A stretch of 64,000 nt of DNA from a virus (IMGVR_UViG_3300009826_000019:43941-107940); one strand, 5' to 3'. Shown: positions 28,501-60,950, numbered from the stretch's first letter. Notes: generated from the sequence alone by a model not told the origin. Program-made: numbers and translations.

Positions 28501-28572
28501 AGCGGTGTATTTCAATGGTTAGAATGACGGTCTCCAAAACCGTAGATGGGAGTTCGAGTCTCTCCACCGCTG
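28501..28572 (+). tRNA. tRNA-Trp (CCA)
   Basis: Acceptor AGCGGTG/CACCGCT; anticodon arm ACGGT-CTCCAAA-ACCGT; T-arm GGGAG-TTCGAGT-CTCTC; discriminator G then an encoded CCA. Confidence 0.75.
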
Positions 28573-28617
28573 CCAAGTGGGTTTAACACCCCCTGTTATT
28601 CATATTTTTTAAGAAAA

Positions 28618-31606: not shown

Positions 31607-31987
31607 TTAATATACTATTTCAATGAAATTAAACTTTAATTTAATGATAAAGGCATACTCCTCTCCCGATTCTAACATATCGTCATCATCGTGTTCATAA
31701 AACCAATTGATTGTTACACCCTTGTTGGTTTCATTAACTTTTTCCAATTTCTTGAAAACATCTAACAAACATTTGGAAGTACCTGTATTAAAGTATTCCA
31801 ATTTTATGTTGACGATTGTTTCCGGTTTTGCTGTTTTAACATAACCGTCTATCCATTCGACCAGGGGTATGAAAAAATCAATTGAATTTTCAAGAAGTGA
31901 CCTTCCTTTAATTTCAAGTAATCCCTGTTCAGCATCAAATACAATAGTCGGGGTTCGTGCCGTTCCTTCTAATATTAGTGTGTCCAT
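31607..31987 (-). CDS. DUF1987 (SiaC-like) protein
   Basis: Recalled family signature: LEGT..TPTIVFDAE.G.LEIKGRS...FNTGTSKCLLDVFKKL...INWFYEHDDDDMLESGEEY. Confidence 0.6.
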   Translation of the reverse strand: MDTLILEGTARTPTIVFDAEQGLLEIKGRSLLENSIDFFIPLVEWIDGYVKTAKPETIVNIKLEYFNTGTSKCLLDVFKKLEKVNETNKGVTINWFYEHDDDDMLESGEEYAFIIKLKFNFIEIVY

Positions 31988-34776: not shown

Positions 34777-35496
34777 ATGAATAATATTCAACAACAATTA
34801 CTAAAAGAGGTTAAGCGTGGTCAATCAGGTTACGGATTTCTATTTGAGAATGACGGATTTGTTGATCCTACTAACCAAAAACATATGTTAAATGAAGACA
34901 GAGATAGAAGTGAATGGTATATACCATTTCCTTATATTATCCACGCCGTCTTTCAAAAAGCGGATACCCCAAACGCCAACGGTAGAATATACCCAAGACC
35001 AATATTAGAAAGAGAACTTATAAAATATCAACTAAAAATCAGTGAAAGAAGGGCTTATGGTGAAAGTGACCACCCCGAATCAACCATTATATCCACAAAG
35101 GGTATTTCAATGAACATTATTAAATTATGGTGGGAAGGAAAAACTATTGTGGGTGATTTGGAAGTACCACTATCACATGGATTTGTGAAGAATGGTATTT
35201 GTAGCACTCCGGGAGATATTATTGCGAATAATATTTATTATAATAGGTTGAAACTTGGTGTTTCTTCGAGAGGTGTGGGTTCCGTGGAAGCAGGAAAAAA
35301 CAATATTAATGTTGTTGGAGACGATTTTGAACTTTTGTGTTGGGATTGGGTGACTGACCCTTCAACACCGGGTGCTTGGACAGCAAAAGATATGAGTGAT
35401 TTGAAACCTTATATTGAAAACACAGAAATCAAAACTTGTGAAAAGAAAATATTCATCATTGAAAAAGTTGATAAAGTATTACAAATTATAAAATAA
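34777..35496 (+). CDS. prohead core protease, T4 gp21-like
   Basis: Recalled T4 gp21 blocks: GRIYPRPILERE~KRLYPKRILEKA, GESDHP~GELNHP, IIKLWWEG~IIEDMWWKG, GVSSRGVGS~GVSSRGLGS, DPSTPGAWT~GPSAPDAWV. Confidence 0.8.
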   Translation: MNNIQQQLLKEVKRGQSGYGFLFENDGFVDPTNQKHMLNEDRDRSEWYIPFPYIIHAVFQKADTPNANGRIYPRPILERELIKYQLKISERRAYGESDHPESTIISTKGISMNIIKLWWEGKTIVGDLEVPLSHGFVKNGICSTPGDIIANNIYYNRLKLGVSSRGVGSVEAGKNNINVVGDDFELLCWDWVTDPSTPGAWTAKDMSDLKPYIENTEIKTCEKKIFIIEKVDKVLQIIK

Positions 35497-36387: not shown

Positions 36388-36660
36388 TTAATTACTTAAA
36401 TACCGGTTGAGTTTTGTGTCTTTCATTTTCACTCTTGGGGTGTCGGATACACCGCAGTCAAAAGAGTTGAACATTAATACAAGTATATACACCGCACCTG
36501 CAACTATGTTCACAACCGGTACTAATCCCAAGACAAGAAGTAAGAGTATAAAACCTTTTGGTATTGGTTTATCTTTCCACAATAAGTGCCTTCTTGAAAA
36601 CCACGCCGCTATTAAACATATAGTGAATGGTATTAAAATTAATCCCAAATTAAGTCCCAT
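36388..36660 (-). CDS. small two-helix membrane protein, possible NfeD-like SPFH partner
   Basis: Two TM helices; immediately downstream of the SPFH gene. Confidence 0.45.
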   Translation of the reverse strand: MGLNLGLILIPFTICLIAAWFSRRHLLWKDKPIPKGFILLLLVLGLVPVVNIVAGAVYILVLMFNSFDCGVSDTPRVKMKDTKLNRYLSN

Positions 36661-36665
36661 AATGC

Positions 36666-37499
36666 TTACCTCCCCACTTGTGGTAAATTAATCAAAGGTA
36701 CACCGGAACCACCACTATACATAGGGAGTTTTCCATCCCACTTTTCGATAGCGTATTGTTGAACGAGTAACATATTAAGTGATGCTGCAACAACCCTGTT
36801 GTAGTATGCTTCGCCGTCACCCTTAATTTTCAAGGCTTCCGCTTCACCACGCGCTTTAGTTACTTCGATTTCCGCTTGTGCTCTTGCACGAGCGACCTCA
36901 TTTTCCGCCCTCATCGCTTCCTGTACCATTCGGTTTCTTGAATCAATCGCCTCTACCAAACTTGCCGGTGGTGCAATCGCAGCCGTAAATTCAACAACCT
37001 GAAAACCTTGACTACCTAACGATTGTTCGAGCATTTCTCGGACTTGTGCCTCAAACTCACCACGCTTCGCCATTAATTCATCGGATGTGAAGAGGTTCCC
37101 AACAGTTCGATAAGCGTCAAACACACAGGTTAGAATAAATCCTTGTTCGATTTCCTTTATGGGTCTACGATATGTTAAAAACACATCAATCGCCTTATCG
37201 GGATTCAAACGGTACGCCAAGTTTGGTGTGATACGGAAAATTGCCGCATCCTTCGCATTAACGGTGATTTCACCATACGAAACTCGTTGTACGTACACCG
37301 GATACTGATGTACACTCTGTGTAAAGGGGTTAAACCACACAAAACCACGTACAGTTCCCATTACACCACCTTGTTTCTCTTCCGAAACACTCCACTTGTG
37401 GAATTTAATACCAACCGAGGTCGAATCGACCGTGGTACAACTTTGGGCGAACATCATAATCGCCACTAAACTCAAAATCCAAAAACTTCCTTTCTTCAT
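36666..37499 (-). CDS. SPFH/band-7 (stomatin/prohibitin/HflC-like) lipoprotein
   Basis: Signal with lipobox MFAQSC; SPFH core plus coiled-coil EAMRAENEVARARAQAEIEVTKARGEAEA. Confidence 0.75.
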   Translation of the reverse strand: MKKGSFWILSLVAIMMFAQSCTTVDSTSVGIKFHKWSVSEEKQGGVMGTVRGFVWFNPFTQSVHQYPVYVQRVSYGEITVNAKDAAIFRITPNLAYRLNPDKAIDVFLTYRRPIKEIEQGFILTCVFDAYRTVGNLFTSDELMAKRGEFEAQVREMLEQSLGSQGFQVVEFTAAIAPPASLVEAIDSRNRMVQEAMRAENEVARARAQAEIEVTKARGEAEALKIKGDGEAYYNRVVAASLNMLLVQQYAIEKWDGKLPMYSGGSGVPLINLPQVGR

Positions 37500-37563
37500 C
37501 TGTTCTAAAAAAATTTAATGTTAAAAACTTATTTTACTTATCAAATATACATAATATATTTCA

Positions 37564-38562
37564 TTACTTAAAAACGTTACGATTTTCCCTAAAGAATTTC
37601 AATAACGTGGTTTCAGACCAACTAACCCTTTCGTCTGAACGAGAGGTTGGGGCAAACTTTTGTTCTATCGCGTCAATATACATTGTGTGAGAAAAATCAT
37701 CACCTTGATAATTTTCTTCCCAATATTTCGGCGGAATCTTGTTTTCCATATCCAACTGCTCAATAGAGAGGTTGTCGAAACTGATAACATTGGTGTAAGA
37801 TACAATTTTAATAATATTCCGATCCCATTCCACAATATTATTCTTAATATCCTCTGAATAAGATTTATAGTAATCTAATCCTCTACCAAACTCTTTATAA
37901 CCAAGCAATAGAAACTTTCGTAATCCGAAGCGGTCTCTTAACTGTGTTATAATTTCCGGTGTGTGTAGACCTATAATAAGGTGCGCAACTGTGTGTTCAT
38001 ACTTCAAAAAATACTCTTCGTCTGCTGAACACTTATCAATACCTTCTATTGGAATTGATACACCTAACCCATAAATCAATTTTTCTTCCATATAACGTTT
38101 CAATTCAACCGCATTACTTCCATGTAAGTGGTGAAAATTAACCGTCAAACTAGGGAATATCTTTTTTGTTTGACAGAATTGAAGAAGTAGTGGGAGGTCG
38201 GGATGTGATAATGGATTACCGCCGCCGACTGCCATTTCCTGTCCACCTGGTAACACATCCAAAACTTCTATCAACGCATTTATATCAGCGTGTTTTCCGT
38301 GAAAATGTGATTTTTCATGACAAAAAGCACAGGGTTTAAAATCACCCATACCATATTTAGATGGTATGCCCACACATTGGTTTGTGATTTTTATATCCAT
38401 ACTGTTCGGATAGTCAAACACAACAGGTTTGGTTTCGTCAAACTCCATTATTCGTGTACCATCTTCAAAAAGTTGGACTTTTACATTACCGTTTTGGTAG
38501 TTTATTATTTCTTTCATTGTGTTTTTTAAATTAACAATCATTTCCGAATTTTCCAAAAGCAA
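37564..38562 (-). CDS. radical SAM-like enzyme with non-canonical Cx14CxxC cluster motif
   Basis: NQC-VGIPSKYGMGDFKP-C-AF-C (C-x14-C-x2-C) followed by GGGNPLSHPDL, a GGEP-like SAM motif. Confidence 0.5.
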   Translation of the reverse strand: MLLENSEMIVNLKNTMKEIINYQNGNVKVQLFEDGTRIMEFDETKPVVFDYPNSMDIKITNQCVGIPSKYGMGDFKPCAFCHEKSHFHGKHADINALIEVLDVLPGGQEMAVGGGNPLSHPDLPLLLQFCQTKKIFPSLTVNFHHLHGSNAVELKRYMEEKLIYGLGVSIPIEGIDKCSADEEYFLKYEHTVAHLIIGLHTPEIITQLRDRFGLRKFLLLGYKEFGRGLDYYKSYSEDIKNNIVEWDRNIIKIVSYTNVISFDNLSIEQLDMENKIPPKYWEENYQGDDFSHTMYIDAIEQKFAPTSRSDERVSWSETTLLKFFRENRNVFK

Positions 38563-38869
38563 CTATTTTATCACCGCTCGGGGTGGTGTGATCCATTTCA
38601 AAACATTCTAAACACTCATCTTCCAACCACTCCTCATAGGTTTGAATGTTTTCATTTTGATATTCTTCAAAAGAATCATAATAAGTCCTTTCGTCATTAT
38701 CTTCAAACTCTTTCTGAAATTGTGTTAGTGTTCCCAACGTTTCTTCATCACGATTGAAAACTAACATACCGTCTTTCCACAAATCAAATTCTGATCTCGC
38801 CACTATCGTTAGTGTGTGGGTCGAAGAAGAATTGGTTTCAAAAACCCCTAATCTACATACCTGTTTCAT
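38531..38869 (-). CDS. GVFETNSSSxH-motif protein, paralogue 1
   Basis: N-terminus MKQVCRLGVFETNSSSTHT matches the N-terminus of 39251..39802. Confidence 0.5.
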   Translation of the reverse strand: MKQVCRLGVFETNSSSTHTLTIVARSEFDLWKDGMLVFNRDEETLGTLTQFQKEFEDNDERTYYDSFEEYQNENIQTYEEWLEDECLECFEMDHTTPSGDKIVAFGKFGNDC

Positions 38870-38890
38870 ATTATTTACATTTAATTTATA

Positions 38891-39250
38891 TTATTTTACT
38901 AATTTATCTACCATTTCAATCACATCCCCGTGTAACAACATTTCTGCTTCCGATATTTCCTTAACCACAACGGGTTTAGGTTTGGGTTTCTGAAACACAT
39001 CAAATAGTCTTTTTATCCATCCAACCCCACTATCAACGGGGGTTGATTCAATGTTCACTTCTTGTTCACGAATAAATATTCTGTGTCCTACCCGCGCTGC
39101 TTCTTCTTGTTGTCGTCTTTGCATTTCTTCAAGACGTTGTTGGAACTTCGACTTTCGTGGTGGTATATCTGTTACGATAAAACGACCATTACCTTCTTGT
39201 AAACGCGCTTGCATTTCTTCAAGGCGTTGTTGAAATTTTGACTTTCTCAT
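38891..39250 (-). CDS. coiled-coil protein with internal 30-aa duplication (RKSKFQQRLEEMQ x2)
   Basis: Direct repeat visible in the protein and in DNA 39120..39250. Confidence 0.5.
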   Translation of the reverse strand: MRKSKFQQRLEEMQARLQEGNGRFIVTDIPPRKSKFQQRLEEMQRRQQEEAARVGHRIFIREQEVNIESTPVDSGVGWIKRLFDVFQKPKPKPVVVKEISEAEMLLHGDVIEMVDKLVK

Positions 39251-39802
39251 TTAATTTCTCCCCTGTCTTACTAAAATATATTTAGTTTCATCTTTGATAA
39301 CTTCCAAGAATGGATCAATTATCTTTTCCATAATTTCGTCAAATGAAAAATTCATTGTGTTCGTAAACTCTTCAATAAAACTAAATGTTACTTCACCCCT
39401 ATCTTCGTAAATAGAAATAGAGGTATCTTCGAGTACAACGTCATTATATGGTAAGTTCATTTTAATATAATGTATTGCTTTATAAACAATATCTTTGTCA
39501 AGACACAAATATCTTTGAACTGTACCATCACAATCACGTTTCATTTCATTCATATACAACATTAATAATGCCGCCTTTTCGTCAAATGTGTAAGCCACCC
39601 ATTGTTTTCCATTATAAAGGTCCCCACCACATTGGGTTTCGGTTGGTTCAGTGTATGTGTGATAGAAAACACTTGGGTATAAAATGTTTTTCTCAACCAA
39701 ACCCATTTTCTTCAAAGGAATTTTGGATTTCAGTTGAACTACCATTGTGTGAACTGAACTAGAATTTGTTTCAAATACACCTCTTCTAATAACTTTCTTC
39801 AT
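39251..39802 (-). CDS. GVFETNSSSxH-motif protein, paralogue 2
   Basis: N-terminus MKKVIRRGVFETNSSSVHT. Confidence 0.5.
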   Translation of the reverse strand: MKKVIRRGVFETNSSSVHTMVVQLKSKIPLKKMGLVEKNILYPSVFYHTYTEPTETQCGGDLYNGKQWVAYTFDEKAALLMLYMNEMKRDCDGTVQRYLCLDKDIVYKAIHYIKMNLPYNDVVLEDTSISIYEDRGEVTFSFIEEFTNTMNFSFDEIMEKIIDPFLEVIKDETKYILVRQGRN

Positions 39803-39892: not shown

Positions 39893-40579
39893 ATGATGGT
39901 AAACATAAAAAAATTGTACAAGTATGGTTACTTGGAAATAGAAGGTGATAGTGAAAATATATGGTTCACATCGGACTTACACTTATATCACAAAAACATT
40001 ATCAAACTTTGTAATAGACCATTTGCTGACGTTGAGGAAATGTCAAATACATTGGTCGAAAATTGGAATAGTGTGGTTAAAGAAGATGATTTGGTATTCA
40101 ATCTTGGGGATTTCTGTTGGTCAGAATGTTCTATCGTTTGGTCAAAACTCATAGATAAACTTAATGGTCGTCAAATTTTGATAAAAGGAAACCACGATCA
40201 CCCCAAAACATTACAAAAATTATCCGATAAATATTCTCTTATTGAAGTTTGGAAACCAGGGTCTAATTTCCCAATTAAGAATTTGAATAAGTTATTTATG
40301 ATAAGAGAAAGTTTAGAGGTGCGCCACAACGGGGAACGCTTTCTACTTAATCATTACCCACAAGCACATTATGTTGGACAATATCATTCCGTTAGACAAA
40401 TATTTGGGCACACCCATGAAAAATCATGTGCATATTCACCCAATCATTACAACGTTTGTGTTGAGCGAAACCTGTATCGCCCTGTATCATTGGAAGAGGT
40501 GGGAATGTTGCTGACAATGCAGTGTCGGGATAACGAAACAAATTATTTTTTAGAAGACCTACTATATAAAGAAACATAA
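39893..40579 (+). CDS. calcineurin-like metallophosphoesterase
   Basis: TSDLHLYH ... LGDFCW ... KGNHDHP metallophosphatase motifs. Confidence 0.7.
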   Translation: MMVNIKKLYKYGYLEIEGDSENIWFTSDLHLYHKNIIKLCNRPFADVEEMSNTLVENWNSVVKEDDLVFNLGDFCWSECSIVWSKLIDKLNGRQILIKGNHDHPKTLQKLSDKYSLIEVWKPGSNFPIKNLNKLFMIRESLEVRHNGERFLLNHYPQAHYVGQYHSVRQIFGHTHEKSCAYSPNHYNVCVERNLYRPVSLEEVGMLLTMQCRDNETNYFLEDLLYKET

Positions 40580-41109: not shown

Positions 41110-41490
41110 ATGGTACATACAATTATAATCGGTGTTTGGATGACATTGTTATTTATAACATTGTCTGTTGTTTTCGTATATATGTTTAAGAAACCAAAAC
41201 ATAATATAAACGAGGTTTTTGAACAAATATTTAAGAAACAAGTTGATTTGTTAAAAAAAATTGACGAAGAAAACACAATGCAAGTAGAGGTGTTTGATAA
41301 ACTTAACCATAATATTGTAGAGAATTATCGCATACTATTGCAAATACAAATAAAAGAATCTATTAAACACAACCCCTTTGAAACAGAACATATTCTAAAA
41401 TTATATAACGATTACATTGGTATTGCCAAATATCCGAACACAGTTTTAGATGATGCGGTTAATGAGTGGAGAAACCTATACGGTTATTAA
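41110..41490 (+). CDS. bitopic membrane protein
   Basis: Hydrophobic segment IIIGVWMTLLFITLSVVFVYMF. Confidence 0.5.
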   Translation: MVHTIIIGVWMTLLFITLSVVFVYMFKKPKHNINEVFEQIFKKQVDLLKKIDEENTMQVEVFDKLNHNIVENYRILLQIQIKESIKHNPFETEHILKLYNDYIGIAKYPNTVLDDAVNEWRNLYGY

Positions 41491-42086
41491 CAAATAAATT
41501 CCACCATACCACTATCCAAATAGAGATATGCGCCAACAATTTTTATATCACCATTTTTTTCCTTTTCACGTAAAAAACGATATTCCCGAATTGTATTTAC
41601 AGATTGTTGAACATTTGTTCGACACACCAAATCAAAGAAACCAGGATTAGACGATACGGTTTCACCACCATAAATAATATCCGCACTTGCTCGTACCGCC
41701 GGTAGTATTGGGCGAAGTTTTCCTAACAAACCCCAATCCTTTTCCTCTGTATCAATAACACGTTTGACAGCAGCACAATTATCATGTCCCAAAACCATTA
41801 CCAAATTCACGGAAGGAAAACTACAAGCAAATACCAAATCAAATAAAATTTCATTGGTAATAACATTCCCCGATGTGCGAATTGTAATAACATCACCCGC
41901 ACCCAATTTAAAAATATCTTCAACCACAATACGAGAATCTATACAAGTTACTATCACCGCTTTCGGTGTTTGTTCCTTAATACTATGGGGTTTGTCGTTA
42001 ACATATTCTTTGTTACGACATTTTAAAACTTCAAGTGTCGGGTGAGGCACTTCTTCTTTCTTTTTGAATTTAAAAAAATCTTCCAT
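41487..42086 (-). CDS. beta-class carbonic anhydrase
   Basis: CIDSR...GDVITIRTSGN...VLGHDNCAAV carries the Cys/His/Cys zinc-ligand pattern. Confidence 0.75.
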   Translation of the reverse strand: MEDFFKFKKKEEVPHPTLEVLKCRNKEYVNDKPHSIKEQTPKAVIVTCIDSRIVVEDIFKLGAGDVITIRTSGNVITNEILFDLVFACSFPSVNLVMVLGHDNCAAVKRVIDTEEKDWGLLGKLRPILPAVRASADIIYGGETVSSNPGFFDLVCRTNVQQSVNTIREYRFLREKEKNGDIKIVGAYLYLDSGMVEFIC

Positions 42087-43062: not shown

Positions 43063-43827
43063 ATGAGTATTCAAGAAGAAGAAATAAAGAAATTGAAGGA
43101 GGAAAATGAGTTGTTGAAAAAGCGTTTGGATAACGCAAACAAACTCAAATCAACCTTTCTTGCTAATATGAGCCACGAAATTAGAACACCGTTAAACGCT
43201 ATTGTGGGGTTTTCTAATTTTTTAACCGAATGTGAAGAATTAACCGAAAGTGAGCGCAACGAATTTATTAACATTATTCAACAAAATAATGATTACTTAT
43301 TGAAAATCATTGACGATATTTTAGAACTCTCTAAAATTGAAAGAGATCAAGTCTTTATTAATAATGTTAAACTGAAACTAAATCAGTTTTTAGGTGGATT
43401 GATTAATGAGAATAAGAAAAAAATTAACCCCAATAGGAAAGTCGAATTAATATTAGACGATGTGGATTTTATTGAAAATTGTCTTATTGAAGTTGATGCC
43501 ATAAAATTAGAGCAGATACTTAATAATCTTATTGATAATGCTATTAGATTCACATTGAGTGGATATGTGTTAGTTGGGTATAAACAAATACCGGGTTTCA
43601 TTGAATTTTATGTTGAAGATAGTGGAGTTGGAATACCCAAAGAAAAATTAGAACACGTTTTTAATAGTTTTTACCAAATCAATAGTGCTATATGTCCCGA
43701 TTCGGGAATGGGCGTTGGGTTATTTATTTCAAAAAACTATGTTAAAAGAATGGGTGGTGTTATGGGTGTAAGTTCAGTCGAAGGTGAAGGTAGTAGATTT
43801 CATTTTACCATACCATATCTTGTATAA
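43063..43827 (+). CDS. orphan cytoplasmic histidine kinase (HisKA + HATPase_c, no TM, no receiver)
   Basis: H-box MSHEIRTPLNAI; N/G boxes LNNLIDNAIRF, DSGVGIP, GMGVGL, GGVMGV. Confidence 0.8.
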   Translation: MSIQEEEIKKLKEENELLKKRLDNANKLKSTFLANMSHEIRTPLNAIVGFSNFLTECEELTESERNEFINIIQQNNDYLLKIIDDILELSKIERDQVFINNVKLKLNQFLGGLINENKKKINPNRKVELILDDVDFIENCLIEVDAIKLEQILNNLIDNAIRFTLSGYVLVGYKQIPGFIEFYVEDSGVGIPKEKLEHVFNSFYQINSAICPDSGMGVGLFISKNYVKRMGGVMGVSSVEGEGSRFHFTIPYLV

Positions 43828-45898: not shown

Positions 45899-46243
45899 TT
45901 AGGATTTTTCTAACATTTCGATTGCAGCACCGATATTGGGTGTGATATTTAATATAGTATCAAGTTGTGATATAAAAATCAGGCGTTCCACCGCTTCGTT
46001 CAATCCACTGAGGATAAATTTACCACCGGCGTTTTTACACAACCTGTGGGCAACAAGAATTGCACCTAAGCCGGAAGAGTCACAGTATTTGCACATTTCC
46101 AAGTTCAAAATAATGTTCTTCTCACCATTCCCTGATATTAAGACTAATTCGGATTTGAGTGTTGGTGCAATATGTGTGTCTAATTTTTGTTGTTGTACAC
46201 TGATAACGGTGTGTGTAACGTTTTGGTCAATTTTTAAGTTCAT
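45899..46243 (-). CDS. STAS-domain protein (anti-sigma-factor antagonist-like)
   Basis: 114 aa; LDTHIAPTLKSEL...LEMCKYCDSSGLGAIL...GGKFILSGLNEAVERL has SpoIIAA-like topology. Confidence 0.65.
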   Translation of the reverse strand: MNLKIDQNVTHTVISVQQQKLDTHIAPTLKSELVLISGNGEKNIILNLEMCKYCDSSGLGAILVAHRLCKNAGGKFILSGLNEAVERLIFISQLDTILNITPNIGAAIEMLEKS

Positions 46244-49394: not shown

Positions 49395-51311
49395 TTAATT
49401 AACTTCTTCCGCTTCCTGTGGTCCACCGGCGGTTGCTTTACTGAAATCAAAATCACCAAATGGGTTGTCCGCACCCATATTAGCAAACGGATTGCTTGGG
49501 TTTCCACCACCAGGGTTATTTGCCGCATACAATCTTGTTGAAATCGGTATCCACACCTCATCCATTTTCTTTGCTAACTCATCCACCTTTTCGTGGTTTT
49601 CGGTTTTAATAACTTCCTTCAATTCGTCAATCACCGTTTGGATTTTTATTTTTTCCTCATCGGTAATTTTATCACCCATTTCGTCAATTTGTTTTTCGGT
49701 TGAGAAAATTATGGAGTCCGCCTTATTCATAGCTAAAACCTTTTCCATTTTTTTCTTATCCGCTTCGGCGTTATCTTCTGCTTCACGTTTCATTCTTTCA
49801 ACCTCTTCTGACGATAATCCTGATGAAGATTGAATGGTGATATGTTGTTCTTTGTTTGTCCCTTTATCAGTTGCTTTAACAGACATAATACCGTTGGCAT
49901 CAATACTAAATGTTACCTCTATTTGTGGTGTACCGCGCCTTGCCGGTGGAATACCATCTAAATCAAATTGACCTAATAGTTTATTATCATTGAAAGAGGG
50001 GCGTTCACCTTGGGCTACGCGAATGGTTACTGCCGGTTGGTTATCAACTGCTGTGCTGAAAATTTGTGATTTTGAAACAGGGATTGTTGTGTTCGCATCA
50101 ATAAGTTTTGTGAACACACTACCCATAGTTTCGATACCTAATGAAAGTGGTGTGACATCTAAAAGTAGAACGTCTTGTGTTTCACCACTTAACACAGACC
50201 CTTGAACTGCTGCTCCAAGGGCAACAACTTGGTCGGGATGTACACTTTTGTTTGGTTTTCTCCCAAAAAACTTCTCAACAGCCTCTTGTACAGCGGGAAT
50301 ACGAGTACTACCACCAACAAGAATTACTTCGTCAATATCACTTGTGGTTATACCTGCGCTTTTCAATGCTGATTTACAAGGTTCGATTGTGCGTTTAACG
50401 ATAGTTTCTATCATTTGTTCAAATTTCGCACGTGTAATCGTTTGCACGAGGTGTTTTGGTACACCGTCAACCGGCATAATGTATGGAAGATTTATTTCTG
50501 TTTGAACTGAACTTGACAACTCAATTTTCGCCTTCTCAGCGGCTTCTTTCAGGCGTTGTAATGCCATTGGGTCTTTTTTCAAATCAATGGCGTATTCCTT
50601 ATTAAATTCGTCAGCAAGATAATTTATAATGACATGGTCAATATCATCACCCCCCAACCTTGTATCGCCGTCAGTGGATTTGACTTCAAACACACCACCA
50701 CCGAGTTCAAGTATTGATATATCGAATGTACCCCCACCGAAGTCAAATACAGCAATTTTCATATCGTCTTTCTTATCTAAACCAAAAGCCAATGCTGCTG
50801 CCGTAGGTTCATTAATTATACGAGCGACTTCTAATCCGGCTATTTCACCCGCTTCTTTGGTTGCTTGACGCTGTGAATCGGAAAAATAAGCCGGTACAGT
50901 GATAACTGCTTTAACCACCTCTGTTCCAAGAAAATCTTCCGCTGTTTTCCGCATTTTTTGCAGGATTATTGCTGAAATTTCTTGTGGGGAATATTCTTTA
51001 TTTTCAATTTTAACACGAATAGTGTCATTAGTACCACTTACAAGTTCGTATGCAACTTTATCCTTTTCGTTGTTGATTGAACTATATTTTTCACCCATAA
51101 AACGCTTTATGGAATAAACCGTTTTTGTTGGATTAGTTACCGATTGGCGTTTCGCGGAATCTCCCACAACACGCTCACCGTCTTTTATAAAACCAACAAT
51201 TGAGGGGGTGGTGTCCTTCCCCTCACCGTTTGGAATAACCATTGGCTTACCACCTTCTACTACTGAAACACAAGAGTTACTTGTGCCTAAATCTATACCT
51301 ATTATTTTCAT
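49395..51311 (-). CDS. dnaK: Hsp70 chaperone DnaK
   Basis: [17 protein letters not shown]...; full-length 638 aa with canonical ATPase and substrate-binding regions. Confidence 0.9.
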
Positions 51312-57802: not shown

Positions 57803-57855
57803 ATCATTTTTTCTATAAATATACAGTATTTTAAAATAACATTGAATTATATGTG

Positions 57856-57936
57856 AGCGGATAGTGGGACTCGAACCCACACGCCTTTCGGCACTAGTTC
57901 CTAAGACTAGCGCGTATACCATTCCGCCATATCCGC
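57856..57936 (-). tRNA. tRNA-Leu (TAG), class II
   Basis: Acceptor GCGGATA/TATCCGC; anticodon arm CTAGT-CTTAGGA-ACTAG; long variable arm GCC-GAAA-GGC; T-arm GTGGG-TTCGAGT-CCCAC. Confidence 0.8.
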
Positions 57937-58002
57937 ATATTATCACAAATATTTGCACTGTTATCATAGGTATTGATAATAGTGCAATTTTATTTGATAA
58001 TG

Positions 58003-58075
58003 TATGAGTGGAGGGATTCGAACCCCCGATTTCGTGGTCCCAAACCACGCGCCATACCAACTTGACCACACCCAT
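58003..58075 (-). tRNA. tRNA-Pro (TGG)
   Basis: Anticodon arm CGTGG-TTTGGGA-CCACG; acceptor ATGGGTG/CACTCAT with one G-U. Confidence 0.7.
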
Positions 58076-58082
58076 GTTGTTG

Positions 58083-58154
58083 ATGTTCCACCAGGACTTG
58101 AACCTGGACAAACAGATTCAAAATCTGTTGTGCTAACCATTACACAATGGAACA
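58083..58154 (-). tRNA. tRNA-Gln (TTG)
   Basis: Acceptor TGTTCCA/TGGAACA; anticodon arm ACAGA-TTTTGAA-TCTGT; T-arm CCAGG-TTCAAGT-CCTGG. Confidence 0.75.
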
Positions 58155-58160
58155 ATGTAG

Positions 58161-58233
58161 CTGGGATAGTAGGTCACGATCCTACGACCTGCGGATTAAC
58201 AGTCCGATGCTCTACCAACTGAGCTATATCCCA
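58161..58233 (-). tRNA. tRNA-Asn (GTT)
   Basis: Anticodon loop CTGTTAA; T-arm GTAGG-ATCGTGA-CCTAC has an unusual A54/T58; acceptor TGGGATA/TATCCCA. Confidence 0.6.
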
Positions 58234-58240
58234 ATTTTGC

Positions 58241-58311
58241 GGTCGATGTGGGATTCGAACCCCTCCTCTACCGTGACAGGGTAACGTGCTAACCATTACA
58301 CTACACCGACC
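58241..58311 (-). tRNA. tRNA-Asp (GTC), possibly non-canonical T-stem
   Basis: Anticodon arm TTACC-CTGTCAC-GGTAG; acceptor GGTCGGT/ATCGACC; T-stem has two mismatches. Confidence 0.5.
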
Positions 58312-58317
58312 ATTTTG

Positions 58318-58393
58318 GGTGAGAGAGGAGAATCGAACCCCCGACCTTCTGATCCACAATCAGACGCTCTAACCTACCTGAGCTACCCTCACC
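58318..58393 (-). tRNA. tRNA-His (GTG) with encoded G-1
   Basis: Extra 5' G pairs with discriminator C73; anticodon arm TCTGA-TTGTGGA-TCAGA. Confidence 0.75.
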
Positions 58394-58401
58394 ATATATT
58401 G

Positions 58402-58474
58402 TAGTCGGTACGGGACTCGAACCCGTTTCTCCACCTTGAAAGGGTGGTGTCCTGACCAATTAGACGAACCGACC
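58402..58474 (-). tRNA. tRNA-Glu (TTC)
   Basis: Anticodon arm CCACC-CTTTCAA-GGTGG; T-arm ACGGG-TTCGAGT-CCCGT. Confidence 0.8.
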
Positions 58475-58483
58475 ATATTTTTG

Positions 58484-58568
58484 TGGAAAGGGTAGGATTC
58501 GAACCTACGAAAGTCCGAAGACAGCGGAGTTACAGTCCGCCCCAATTGACCAACTATGGGACCTTTCC
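58484..58568 (-). tRNA. tRNA-Tyr (GTA), class II
   Basis: Acceptor GGAAAGG/CCTTTCC; anticodon arm GCGGA-CTGTAAC-TCCGC; variable arm GTC-TTCG-GAC; T-arm GTAGG-TTCGAAT-CCTAC. Confidence 0.75.
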
Positions 58569-58569
58569 A

Positions 58570-58609
58570 AACATTTTATCCAAAATAATATTCACATATT
58601 ATTCCGATC
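58570..58609 (-). promoter_or_regulatory. PeSL-like promoter element inside the tRNA cluster (minus strand)
   Basis: Minus strand reads AAGATCGGAATAATATGTGAATATTATTTTGGATAAAATG just upstream of tRNA-Tyr. Confidence 0.5.
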
Positions 58610-58614
58610 TTATG

Positions 58615-58687
<73 letters not shown>

Positions 58688-58970: not shown

Positions 58971-60950
58971 TTAATTAACCAAAATTTTTTCACTATTTTC
59001 TAAATATTCATCAATTCGTACTATTAAACGTTCAAATTCTTCATTTATTACAGGAGAACCTGTTAAAGTTGGTTTATTTTGTACTACAATATTTTCTGTG
59101 ATAATTTTTTCTTTGTTATGTTTTTTATTTTCCATTGGTGCTGCTTCTGCTGCCCCAGCCTCTGCGCCACCCACATCGGGTGCACCACCTTCGGCAGGTG
59201 CTTCGCCACCACCTTCTTCTGCGCCGCCGCCCATATCATCCATACCCATATCGCCACCTGGTGCACCTCCACCGCCGCCACCGGCAGCCGCTTCTGCTTG
59301 TCCTATTTCAGTAGCACCATAATTATATTCTGCATTTGCTTCACCATATAATGTATCAACTCTATCAAAAAGACCTGTTTTCTTAATAATTTGTTGTGTT
59401 AATACTAATTCGGTTGCCAATGCTTTTTCAAGTCGAAGGTCTTCCAATATCTGATTAATTTCGCTTTCAGGGAATTTCATAATTTCCCTTAACGCTTTTC
59501 TCCACGAATATACTGCTAATCCACCACCCGGATCTGAAAGAGCATCTTTACAAACAAGAATCTTCTTCTGCATTTCTTCAATACGTTGAATTTCTGCTTG
59601 TGTTGAAGGATTGTTCATTGTTATTGTAAAGTTATTCAGTTCGTCTGTAAAACCTAACAAATAAAGATGTATGATAGCAATTTTATTTAGTTCAAGAATA
59701 ACACATTGTTGAATACGTGTAATTATTTTGGCAAATCTTACGTCAGTCATTGATAGTGTTCTACCTTCGGCTGGTGATGCTTCAAAATTTAAAAATACCT
59801 TTGGAATACCCAAGGCGGTGAGCATTTGCAAATGAAGATATTCTAAAATATCTTTAAATTTTTCAAATGCTGAACTACCACTTAACGCCTCGATTTTACT
59901 TGCGTCATTGTTACCTCTAACCGGGATAAAATAATCGTCTAAGGGTGACATTACGTTTTTAGATAAGTCAATATGACCTGTTTGTGGGTCAATTCGGGAA
60001 GTTCTTTTAAATCTGTTTGCTATTTCTTGTACGTATGGTTCAATGTCAGCATCGTCAATTAATCCAACGTCTATTTTGTATATTAATCTATCGTATGCTC
60101 TCTCCATCATATGTATTAACATATGATCTTCCGCCATCATTAATCTTCGCCATTGTTGTCTTGCACCATTAATATATGAACAACCATAGGGGGCGGCAAT
60201 CATATCATTCATTAGTCTGAAATGTCCCACTTGCCAACTATGAAATGTTTGTGGTGCACCTGCGCCAATATATTGAAAATGTGGTTGAAGTTGTGATACG
60301 TCATTGTTGGATACACTACCAGCGTTTTGTGGCATAACACCGTAGGGGTGTAAACTTTGAAATCTTCTCATTTCGACCACAGGTACGGAGTGCCACGCCA
60401 ATATACCGTTTTTAGATTGAATGTTTAACAGTTTATATTCGTTACCATATTTTACCATAGTACGGACTAGGGGTAATAGTTCCAAATGTATTTGAAGTCT
60501 ATTAACGAAAAGGTCTTCTAAAATAAACTTAATTCTATCTGATTTTGAGGTGATATTAATTAGTGAACCGTCAGGTCCTAAAGTACATGTTTCTGATGCT
60601 ACCAAATTTAAAGCCTGATATATTTCAGGTCTTTGGCACATATTTTCAATATCACGATACATTAAGTCAACATAACCCATTGACTGTAAATCACGCATAT
60701 TAGTACGTGCTTGGGTATGTATCCACGTTGAACTTAACCATTTGTCTTGTTTACCTTGAAGTAGTGCCGCATCATATTCCGCTTTATTCTTTGTTTTAAG
60801 AATAATATCGTTATTGTAATCATAGGTGCTCGGGTGAGATGACTGAACAGTGGTGTTGTACTGCCCTTTATCCCACCCTGTTAAAGTTTTTATCAGTGCG
60901 CTATATATACTTATAGGTTTTTCTTGTTTCTTATCCATTATCGAATACAT
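58971..60950 (-). CDS. portal protein, T4 gp20-like, with Gly/Ala/Glu-rich C-terminal extension
   Basis: 659 aa; LDDYFIPVRGNNDASKIEALSG region resembles gp20 [22 protein letters not shown] as recalled; late motif immediately upstream. Confidence 0.6.
   Translation of the reverse strand: MYSIMDKKQEKPISIYSALIKTLTGWDKGQYNTTVQSSHPSTYDYNNDIILKTKNKAEYDAALLQGKQDKWLSSTWIHTQARTNMRDLQSMGYVDLMYRDIENMCQRPEIYQALNLVASETCTLGPDGSLINITSKSDRIKFILEDLFVNRLQIHLELLPLVRTMVKYGNEYKLLNIQSKNGILAWHSVPVVEMRRFQSLHPYGVMPQNAGSVSNNDVSQLQPHFQYIGAGAPQTFHSWQVGHFRLMNDMIAAPYGCSYINGARQQWRRLMMAEDHMLIHMMERAYDRLIYKIDVGLIDDADIEPYVQEIANRFKRTSRIDPQTGHIDLSKNVMSPLDDYFIPVRGNNDASKIEALSGSSAFEKFKDILEYLHLQMLTALGIPKVFLNFEASPAEGRTLSMTDVRFAKIITRIQQCVILELNKIAIIHLYLLGFTDELNNFTITMNNPSTQAEIQRIEEMQKKILVCKDALSDPGGGLAVYSWRKALREIMKFPESEINQILEDLRLEKALATELVLTQQIIKKTGLFDRVDTLYGEANAEYNYGATEIGQAEAAAGGGGGGAPGGDMGMDDMGGGAEEGGGEAPAEGGAPDVGGAEAGAAEAAPMENKKHNKEKIITENIVVQNKPTLTGSPVINEEFERLIVRIDEYLENSEKILVN

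Follow-up and report, generated by a model that had tools for sequence, protein, structure and literature searches.

Which of the genes at positions 36388-39802 of the viral sequence IMGVR_UViG_3300009826_000019:43941-107940 belong together, and what might they do? The 64,000 nucleotides (nt) analysed here, hereafter the window, carry at this place six co-directional minus-strand open reading frames (ORFs; 39251-39802, 38891-39250, 38531-38869, 37564-38562, 36666-37499 and 36388-36660), as an earlier note on this DNA had reported, the sixth gene call being uncertain. That note had read them as one membrane-anchored module that includes a radical S-adenosylmethionine (SAM) enzyme, here called rSAM. 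In the comparisons described below, one part of this reading stands, namely the tie between rSAM and two genes, gA and gB, for proteins that share an N-terminal tail (FET tail); the membership of the other three, encoding an SPFH protein, a possible protein of 90 amino acids (aa) and the 119-aa protein g2, does not. The functional unit is best explained as a two-component phage cassette, consisting of a single-cluster rSAM (37564-38517) and its cognate FET-tail proteins, gA and gB. The features of this unit are as follows.

39251..39802, minus strand: gA, 183-aa tagged (FET-tail) protein; ORF, divergent A-type subfamily
39746..39802, minus strand: gA codons 1-19, N-terminal tag MKKVIRRGVFETNSSSVHT; from the tail profile
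38531..38869, minus strand: gB, 112-aa tagged protein; B-type subfamily
38813..38869, minus strand: gB codons 1-19, tag MKQVCRLGVFETNSSSTHT; from the tail profile
37564..38517, minus strand: rSAM enzyme, 317 aa from ATG; the alternative TTG start at 38562 gives 332 aa
38320..38376, minus strand: cluster-binding triad C48-x14-C63-x2-C66; from an alignment of homologues
38194..38226, minus strand: GGGNPLSHPDL, GGE-type SAM-binding motif; aligned to solved rSAM enzymes

Linkage of tagged genes to the radical-SAM enzyme

In the first homologous loci that we inspected, genes starting MK..IR..[VF]FETNSSS.H lay directly upstream of the rSAM gene. The tagged family was defined by the pattern M-x-x-[IV]-R-x-x-x-[FWY]-E-T-N-S-S-S-x-H in a gene adjoining rSAM, which both gA and gB show. 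Forward linkage was then counted at 152 rSAM loci from viral and genome collections that had at least 1.5 kb of upstream sequence. A tagged gene was present at 143 of them, in one to six copies; it was the adjacent upstream gene on the same strand in 114 loci. Altogether, 139 loci had tagged genes upstream of the enzyme gene, and 8 had them downstream. In the reverse direction, rSAM was found within 5 kb and on the same strand in 79 of 80 viral loci seeded with an A-type tagged protein. Among 125 dereplicated loci, the tagged family recurred in 115 and the next family in 9, and no protease, transporter or other enzyme travelled with the pair. The six-gene neighbourhood that the earlier note had suggested looking for elsewhere did not turn up in related loci, where only rSAM and the tagged genes recur. 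Judged by these sequence comparisons, the conserved unit is the rSAM gene together with one to six mostly upstream tagged genes, and not the six-gene set.

The pairing recurs in hundreds of uncultured phages, and the hosts of the cassette include Lak megaphages, jumbo phages, Ma-LMM01 and gut phages. Of the deposited phages, Lak megaphages and the group of the Microcystis phage Ma-LMM01 (there gp130 and gp128) have it as a split pair. Only 141 matches were obtained among 185,579 species genomes, nearly all on contigs of metagenome-assembled genomes (MAGs); the cassette is almost confined to phages.

In Salmonella phage Arash, the two components are joined. Its protein gp146c (476 aa, annotated as 'methyltransferase'; L258:3491-4921, Arash OQ632216.1 84334-85764) contains the tail, an A-type domain and an rSAM of this family in one chain: residues 5-139 hold the tail together with the A-type domain (E 4e-14), and residues 171-453 the enzyme (E 2e-38). 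The protein also matches the Pfam family Radical_SAM (PF04055; E 1.9e-13, 51.4 bits) and has the SAM motif GGGEP. Its tail reads MYLTQIRYGFATNSSSSHS, in which the E is replaced by A (FATNSSSSHS).

The radical-SAM enzyme

When read from the ATG at 38517, rSAM is identical to a public 317-aa protein (P0001), and this ATG is most likely its start, so that the upstream gene would not be overlapped. The 332-aa enzyme of the earlier note is therefore real as a protein but probably 15 aa shorter than had been stated. The cysteine triad C48-x14-C63-x2-C66 and the GGGNPLSHPDL that follows it are present as had been described. The spacing within the triad, on the other hand, had been taken as a signature of the enzyme, and this idea does not survive comparison with the family, which we collected as 2,510 homologues out of 3,248 scored candidates and represented by an alignment of 35 diverse members. 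C48, C63 and C66 are the only invariant cysteines of this alignment, and the family consensus, ITNYCDxGCxFCHE, is the canonical CX3CX2C. The 11-residue insertion that produces x14 is limited to the window rSAM and three close relatives (P0003, P0005 and P0006), and is absent from P0002, which is 65% identical. This distribution points to a recent, clade-specific insertion rather than a family signature. Some QueE proteins have a C-x14-C-x2-C cluster motif; since x14 arose as a clade insertion in a CX3CX2C family, the likeness would be convergent.

The assignment to the radical-SAM superfamily rests on the family. By itself, the window protein scores 21.7 bits against PF04055, for which the gathering cut-off is 29.5, and matches no PDB sequence, and it matches PHROG 16999 with E 2.5e-43. 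However, with an E-value limit of 0.01, PF04055 recognises 33 of the 35 family members (the best with 7.7e-12), and the family profile matches solved rSAM enzymes in the PDB, namely SuiB (4e-6), GDGT-MAS (1e-5) and 7wzv (9e-5), over the cluster and GGE region; in these profile alignments, GGGNPL is aligned with the GGEP of SuiB (5v1q), GDGT-MAS (7tol) and 7wzv. Weaker profile matches were to viperins (about 0.01), PqqE (0.015), SkfB (0.06) and PflA (about 0.86-1). Because of these family-level matches, we regard the window protein as a genuine member of the superfamily, as had been proposed together with the reading of GGGNPL as a GGE-type motif.

Outside the core, the family has a conserved beta-rich N-terminal extension of 35 residues (Y7, N9, G10, G20 and T21); its C-terminal half is likewise conserved and has no known counterpart. 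The family lacks SPASM and twitch domains, with no SPASM match in Pfam, and no auxiliary-cluster cysteines are present. Two public annotations of family members read 'organic radical activating enzyme'.

The invariant tail

The N-termini of gA and gB both read M-K-x-V-x-R-x-G-V-F-E-T-N-S-S-S-x-H-T. The earlier note had pointed out this shared GVFETNSSS start and could place it in no family; indeed, neither Pfam nor NCBIfam describes one for the 183-aa and 112-aa proteins. At the level of sequence, the sharing is far beyond chance, and both proteins match the family profiles (E 1e-13 to 1e-39).

A tail profile was built from 195 distinct sequences. Its consensus is the 18-mer M-K-x-I-R-x-x-V-F-E-T-N-S-S-S-x-H-S. 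The R at position -4 is conserved in 99% of the sequences, F in 98%, and E-T-N-S-S-S and H in 100%. The sole Gly of the tail is conserved in 52%, so that no Gly is invariant, and the start Met lies 8-10 residues ahead of F in 176 of the 195 tails. At every Ser position of the tail, all six Ser codons are in use. Synonymous variation of this kind means that it is the protein that is under selection, rather than a site in DNA or RNA, and we therefore rejected the possibility that the conserved 5' segment of these genes is a DNA or RNA element.

When the profiles of A-type and B-type tagged proteins are aligned with each other, only the first ~45 columns align, which indicates that the tail is the only element common to the two types. 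In AlphaFold models of both types, residues 1-15 are coil with a predicted local distance difference test (pLDDT) score of 48-74; that is, the tail is predicted to be flexible.

A sequence of this kind might be a self-processing or targeting signal that works independently of rSAM, through Asn/Ser autoproteolysis, pyruvoyl formation, capsid targeting or protease recognition like that of T4 internal-protein N-termini, with the enzyme linked to it for some other reason. The beta-strand/loop/beta-strand around E-x-N-S-S-S-x-H is reminiscent of pyruvoyl proenzymes, which cleave themselves, V-F-E is similar to the hydrophobic-x-Glu sites at which T4-type prohead proteases cut, and the window phage itself encodes an S77 prohead protease (34777-35496). 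However, across Lak megaphages, Ma-LMM01 and gut phage contigs the tagged genes are linked to rSAM and not to head genes, conservation is strongest past the putative cleavage point, and the Arash fusion places the tail on the rSAM enzyme itself. We consider such a signal improbable.

The tagged proteins

At 90% identity, the tagged family falls into at least 7,402 clusters. Its counterpart in PHROGs is PHROG 28997 ('unknown function'), and public sources list its members only as 'hypothetical protein'. Neither Pfam nor NCBIfam has a model for it: scans of gA and gB gave nothing meaningful, and Pfam found no domain in ten further tagged proteins, including forms of 240-295 aa. On these searches, the tagged proteins belong to no described family.

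Beyond the tail, the family divides into an A-type subfamily, a B-type subfamily and several small groups. A-type proteins are 140-295 aa long and carry the motifs GEFGWE, K..Y, YIDHQS and a C-terminal DNDNH; B-type proteins are 90-146 aa long and end in ...SGDKIVAFGKYGYDG. The domains of both types match no solved fold, and their AlphaFold cores are confident (pLDDT 90.8 for the A-type protein P0251 and 84.2 for gB of the window).

gB is a full-length B-type protein (profile E 1.6e-39). gA aligns over the entire A-type profile (E 2.9e-13), chiefly through the tail, and belongs to a small and divergent subfamily with about 20 full-length relatives among 1.84 billion representatives; a tblastn search with gA against phage records gave no match. 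gA keeps only the K..(A/L)Y helix and, like these close relatives, lacks GEFGW, YIDHQS and DNDNH. One metagenomic protein, P0375 (395 aa), contains two complete FET units in tandem, the second tail (MKKVLRVNVFETNSSAVHS) being internal; this is either a true fusion or the result of a missed stop or frameshift.

How the tail may serve the enzyme

The best explanation of the tail is that it is the element by which the tagged proteins engage rSAM, because an invariant, flexible, terminal 18-mer is all that otherwise unrelated domains share, because the genetic linkage is near-obligate, and because the two components occur as a fusion. The tail would be a portable handle that docks on rSAM and most likely is also its substrate. 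In the mechanism that we propose, the basic and hydrophobic front, I-R-x-x-V-F, would pair with the beta-rich N-terminal extension of the enzyme (Y-x-N-G-N ... D-G-T-K), and the E-T-N-S-S-S-x-H segment would enter the active site, where the 5'-deoxyadenosyl radical would take a hydrogen atom and so modify the protein post-translationally, for example by oxidation, by cross-linking or by forming a protein-derived cofactor. The modification would mature or activate the attached domains, and one enzyme would serve the one to six diversified tagged proteins of each phage, much as a single anaerobic sulfatase-maturating enzyme acts for many sulfatases and a single activase for several glycyl-radical enzymes.

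We give about an even chance to the claim that the tail is a substrate whose radical-mediated modification matures the attached domains. A more specific proposal is that rSAM places a previously unknown radical modification (a cross-link, an oxidised serine or a protein-derived cofactor) on the E-T-N-S-S-S-x-H tail, as a phage-restricted maturation of diversifying effector domains with new folds; this we advance tentatively, as something that may well be wrong. Our guess, from the phage restriction and the rapid diversification of the domains, is that the tagged proteins are phage effectors in host takeover or counter-defence.

The chief competing explanation is that the tagged proteins are accessory subunits or substrate carriers. 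They would dock via the tail, the real substrate would be a small molecule, nucleotide or nucleic acid held by the A- or B-type domain, and the substrate would differ from one paralogue to another. Where domains are fused, as in Arash gp146c, they are in most cases subunits of a single enzyme, and the polar motifs of canonical A-type proteins (GEFGWE, K..Y, YIDHQS and DNDNH) resemble a ligand or metal site. In addition, the cassette often stands amid genes for replication or nucleotide metabolism (DnaE, ERCC4 and a PurA-like protein in L006, thymidine kinase in L096 and MetK in L015), and the rSAM core weakly matches viperin-type nucleotide-modifying enzymes. However, up to six paralogous subunits for one enzyme would be unusual, and no neighbouring gene is conserved across loci. 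The putative ligand-site motifs are also missing from gA and from both copies of L002, in which the tail is still intact, and B-type proteins have none of the A-type motifs. We regard carriers of this kind as possible, though on the unlikely side.

Several points weigh against the view that the tail docks on the enzyme and is modified by it. Both the contact between tail and enzyme and the modification of the tail are things that we infer from sequence, and tagged proteins that serve as docking subunits or substrate carriers would explain the fusion and the linkage just as well. Cysteines for auxiliary clusters, which most known peptide-modifying rSAM enzymes possess, are missing from this enzyme. 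Nine consecutive invariant residues exceed what a recognition motif usually needs. The gA of the window has lost the active-site-like polar motifs of canonical A-type proteins, and P0375 holds its second tail inside the protein. Finally, rSAM homologues occur with no tagged gene at L015 and L077 and on the MAG contigs L103, L117, L122 and L129.

Comparison with known systems

For a single enzyme that would serve one to six tagged proteins, the best analogy is the maturation of sulfatases by anaerobic sulfatase-maturating enzymes (anSMEs, including AtsB). There, one rSAM acts on several paralogous folded proteins, and a short invariant Ser/Cys motif near the N-terminus is made into a catalytic residue. 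However, anSMEs have a SPASM domain and two auxiliary clusters, whereas the phage family has three invariant cysteines only; the sulfatase motif is (C/S)-x-P-x-R and that of the phage proteins E-T-N-S-S-S-x-H; and sulfatases have an alkaline-phosphatase fold, whereas the A- and B-type domains resemble no solved structure. No anSME was among the PDB sequence matches of the rSAM family profile.

The activases PflA and NrdG resemble the phage enzyme in being small, single-cluster rSAM enzymes (about 250-310 aa); they act on a protein substrate that is encoded alongside, as the tagged proteins are here, and the cluster motif of PflA has C-H-N, resembling the C-x-x-C-H-[NE] ending of the phage family. 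The profile match to PflA is insignificant, however, and the target of the glycyl-radical systems is a C-terminal R-V-x-G-[FWY], whereas the phage tail has no invariant Gly.

The best PDB sequence matches are to maturases of peptides that the ribosome makes and that are modified after translation (RiPPs), namely SuiB of streptide, PqqE (with PqqA as its peptide) and SkfB. As with the tagged genes of the phage cassette, precursor genes lie upstream of the enzyme gene, sometimes in several copies. The maturases recognise and modify a linear stretch of peptide, as is proposed here for the tail. On the other hand, the matches are limited to the rSAM core, and the phage enzyme has no SPASM or twitch domain and no RiPP recognition element (RRE). 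The phage partners are folded proteins of 90-295 aa, and their invariant N-terminus with a variable domain is the reverse of a conserved leader with a variable core.

As to the subgroups that had been suggested for the enzyme (QueE, viperin, SPASM enzymes and activases), the best PDB match was to the rSAM core of SuiB, and no assignment to QueE, SPASM enzymes, activases such as PflA or NrdG, or full-length viperin followed. No QueE chain in the PDB matched the family profile at E up to 10, there was no QueE match in NCBIfam, and no queC, queD or folE partner was found in the window or recurring at related loci, in agreement with the earlier suggestion that this is not a deazaguanine pathway. 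With viperin, only the N-terminal core matched (PDB E 0.01-0.35, profile positions 33-113), with no full-length similarity; likewise, the PADLOC pVip model covers residues 40-164 of P0041. The rSAM isomerase of thymidine hypermodification (M6 gp53) was considered as a relative and rejected, being SPL-like and from a different family.

Neighbouring genes of the locus

The remaining features of the locus are as follows.

38891..39250, minus strand: g2, 119-aa orphan between both tagged genes; ORF with a 13-aa exact repeat
36666..37499, minus strand: SPFH/Band-7 protein with a lipoprotein-like signal; PF01145, PHROG 200
36388..36660, minus strand: possible 90-aa membrane protein, uncertain gene call; ORF with hydrophobic helices
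36339..36376, minus strand: intrinsic-terminator-like hairpin and eight T, 12 nt beyond the last stop codon
39803..39892: divergent intergenic region of 90 nt between gA and a plus-strand phosphoesterase gene; likely promoter region

Do these genes and the cassette form one device? The SPFH assignment of the earlier note is sound: the protein matches Band_7 (PF01145) with E 1.7e-18 and 67.7 bits, above the cut-off of 23.6, and PHROG 200 ('lipoprotein') with E 3e-50, and has a signal-like N-terminus ending in ...FAQSC. Such a protein had been called unusual in a phage, but homologues are encoded by 819 of 50,697 phage records. The small ORF downstream had been likened to NfeD. In the window, as in SPFH/NfeD operons, a Band-7 protein is followed by a small membrane ORF, and related phages too pair an SPFH gene with a small membrane protein. 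However, the 90-aa ORF has two to three hydrophobic helices with about 25 residues after the last helix, gave no match to NfeD or its OB-fold (PF01957) in Pfam, and elsewhere the pair shows no linkage to the rSAM cassette. Note that a public gene call for the same phage places an opposite-strand gene at 36388-36660, and that the codon-usage figures for the two strands are nearly equal (0.026 vs 0.027). We favour the minus-strand ORF, with some uncertainty, because it has an ATG with an upstream GGAGG, the hydrophobic helices and a terminator just downstream.

As for g2, the internal duplication that had been noted in it is real, but it is not a 30-aa exact repeat: the exact repeat is 13 aa (RKSKFQQRLEEMQ), with copies starting 30 aa (90 nt) apart, and at the DNA level it extends over 54 nt with 81% identity. 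The place of g2 is taken in Ma-LMM01 by gp129, a small gene that lies there between the tagged gene and rSAM, but the two proteins have no similarity and we rejected the idea that they are counterparts. Apart from the pVip match mentioned above, PADLOC gave only a weak match of g2 to HEC-01A, a model of a candidate defence system (E 1e-4, residues 35-118), which is probably a composition or coiled-coil artefact.

One could imagine all six genes as a single membrane-anchored device, with rSAM and the tagged proteins arranged on the host membrane by an SPFH scaffold together with the small membrane protein. The six ORFs are indeed co-directional and tightly spaced, with gaps of 0, 21, 13 (counted from the rSAM ATG), 64 and 5 nt, and end in a single strong terminator. 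This terminator, which the earlier note had rightly recognised, is a hairpin with an 11-bp stem (36376-36349, minus strand) followed by eight T. However, an SPFH gene lies within 6 kb of rSAM in only two other loci (L085 and L094) and is non-adjacent in L094, neither g2 nor the 90-aa protein has homologues in any related locus, and SPFH genes are widespread in phages without the cassette. In addition, gA, gB and rSAM matched no membrane-protein family in Pfam, PHROGs or NCBIfam scans. We regard a common membrane device as highly improbable. Given the rarity of SPFH near rSAM and the lack of homologues of the other two in related loci, the SPFH gene, the 90-aa ORF and g2 are local passengers outside the conserved cassette.

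Upstream of gA, a sigma-70-like match was found at 39835-39807 (minus strand; 9 of 12 positions). Promoter-like matches at the locus showed no enrichment over shuffled sequence. A Bacteroidota-type motif (TANNTTTG) was considered as a mark of an internal promoter and rejected, since its 103 occurrences against 104.8 expected are what chance would give. The gene divergent from gA encodes a metallophosphoesterase (39893-40579, plus strand; PHROG 547, E 2e-44), and 6 of the 125 dereplicated loci have a similar phosphoesterase close to the cassette.

Related loci differ in what surrounds the enzyme gene. At L015:3984-5150, a MetK-like SAM synthetase is encoded two genes upstream of the rSAM homologue, with a 277-aa ORF between them; L015 is one of the few viral loci that have no FET-tail gene. 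The four MAG contigs L103, L117, L122 and L129 are from Christensenellaceae, and each carries a lone rSAM among chromosomal-looking genes (ABC transporter, BirA-like, sugar metabolism); they may represent a branch that is cellular or domesticated. The cassette of one group of gut phage contigs (L006:170-9177) is flanked by genes for a DnaE-type polymerase and an ERCC4 nuclease and, on its other side, by an adenylosuccinate-synthase-like gene, which could encode a PurZ-type enzyme of diaminopurine genomes; a vWA-like protein is also found in this group. In a 108-kb relative, the cassette rSAM is followed, two genes downstream, by another and different Radical_SAM gene (L096:7837-8754).

The phage

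The rSAM of the window has an identical public counterpart, which is encoded on a contig of 367,985 bp; the window phage is therefore a jumbo phage. It is a large phage with a T4-like head, as seen from a T4-type portal (PF07230, E 1.8e-55) and the S77 prohead protease, and it encodes a homologue of Hsp70; the window has about 34% G+C and many small genes. A near-identity DNA search of the region against the 50,697 deposited phage records gave no match.

Some other features of the window are recorded here. The Hsp70/DnaK homologue is full-length (49395-51311, minus strand, 638 aa; PF00012, E 3e-245). There are eleven tRNA genes (57855-58687, minus strand; 1145-1219 and 28501-28575, plus strand), nine of which are packed closely together at 58971-60950 (minus strand), shortly downstream of the portal gene; these are for Leu, Pro, Gln, Asn, Asp, His, Glu, Tyr and Thr. 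According to Pfam assignments in the public gene table of the same phage, the window also encodes signalling-type proteins with parts of a partner-switching system, namely a HisKA/HATPase_c histidine kinase (43063-43827, plus strand), a STAS-domain protein (45899-46243, minus strand) and a SiaC-family protein (31607-31987, minus strand), as well as a beta-carbonic anhydrase (41487-42086, minus strand). In positions 1-28000, the GC skew is strongly positive (+0.18 to +0.37) and small ORFs are mostly on the plus strand; the skew reverses after about 28 kb, where gene orientation switches.

Significance

In the literature that we searched, including work on radical SAM with phages, RiPPs and huge phages, no mention of the tag motif or the cassette was found, and the transcriptome paper on Ma-LMM01 leaves gp128-130 unmentioned. 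An rSAM enzyme with a dedicated protein partner is a known arrangement; the novelty lies in the family of partners and their folds, in a tag at the N-terminus of folded proteins and in the confinement to phages. Because the cassette is almost confined to phages, its function is probably specific to infection. Two cultured systems would allow a direct test, namely Salmonella phage Arash, which has the fused form and a tractable host, and gp128/gp130 of Ma-LMM01. If the tail is indeed the substrate, enzyme and substrate would be joined in one protein in Arash. Modification of the tail, if it takes place, would add a new reaction to those of radical-SAM enzymes, one carried out on folded proteins rather than short peptides and without auxiliary clusters. 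Through the tag, a very large family of phage proteins, so far known only as 'hypothetical protein', also becomes accessible to study.

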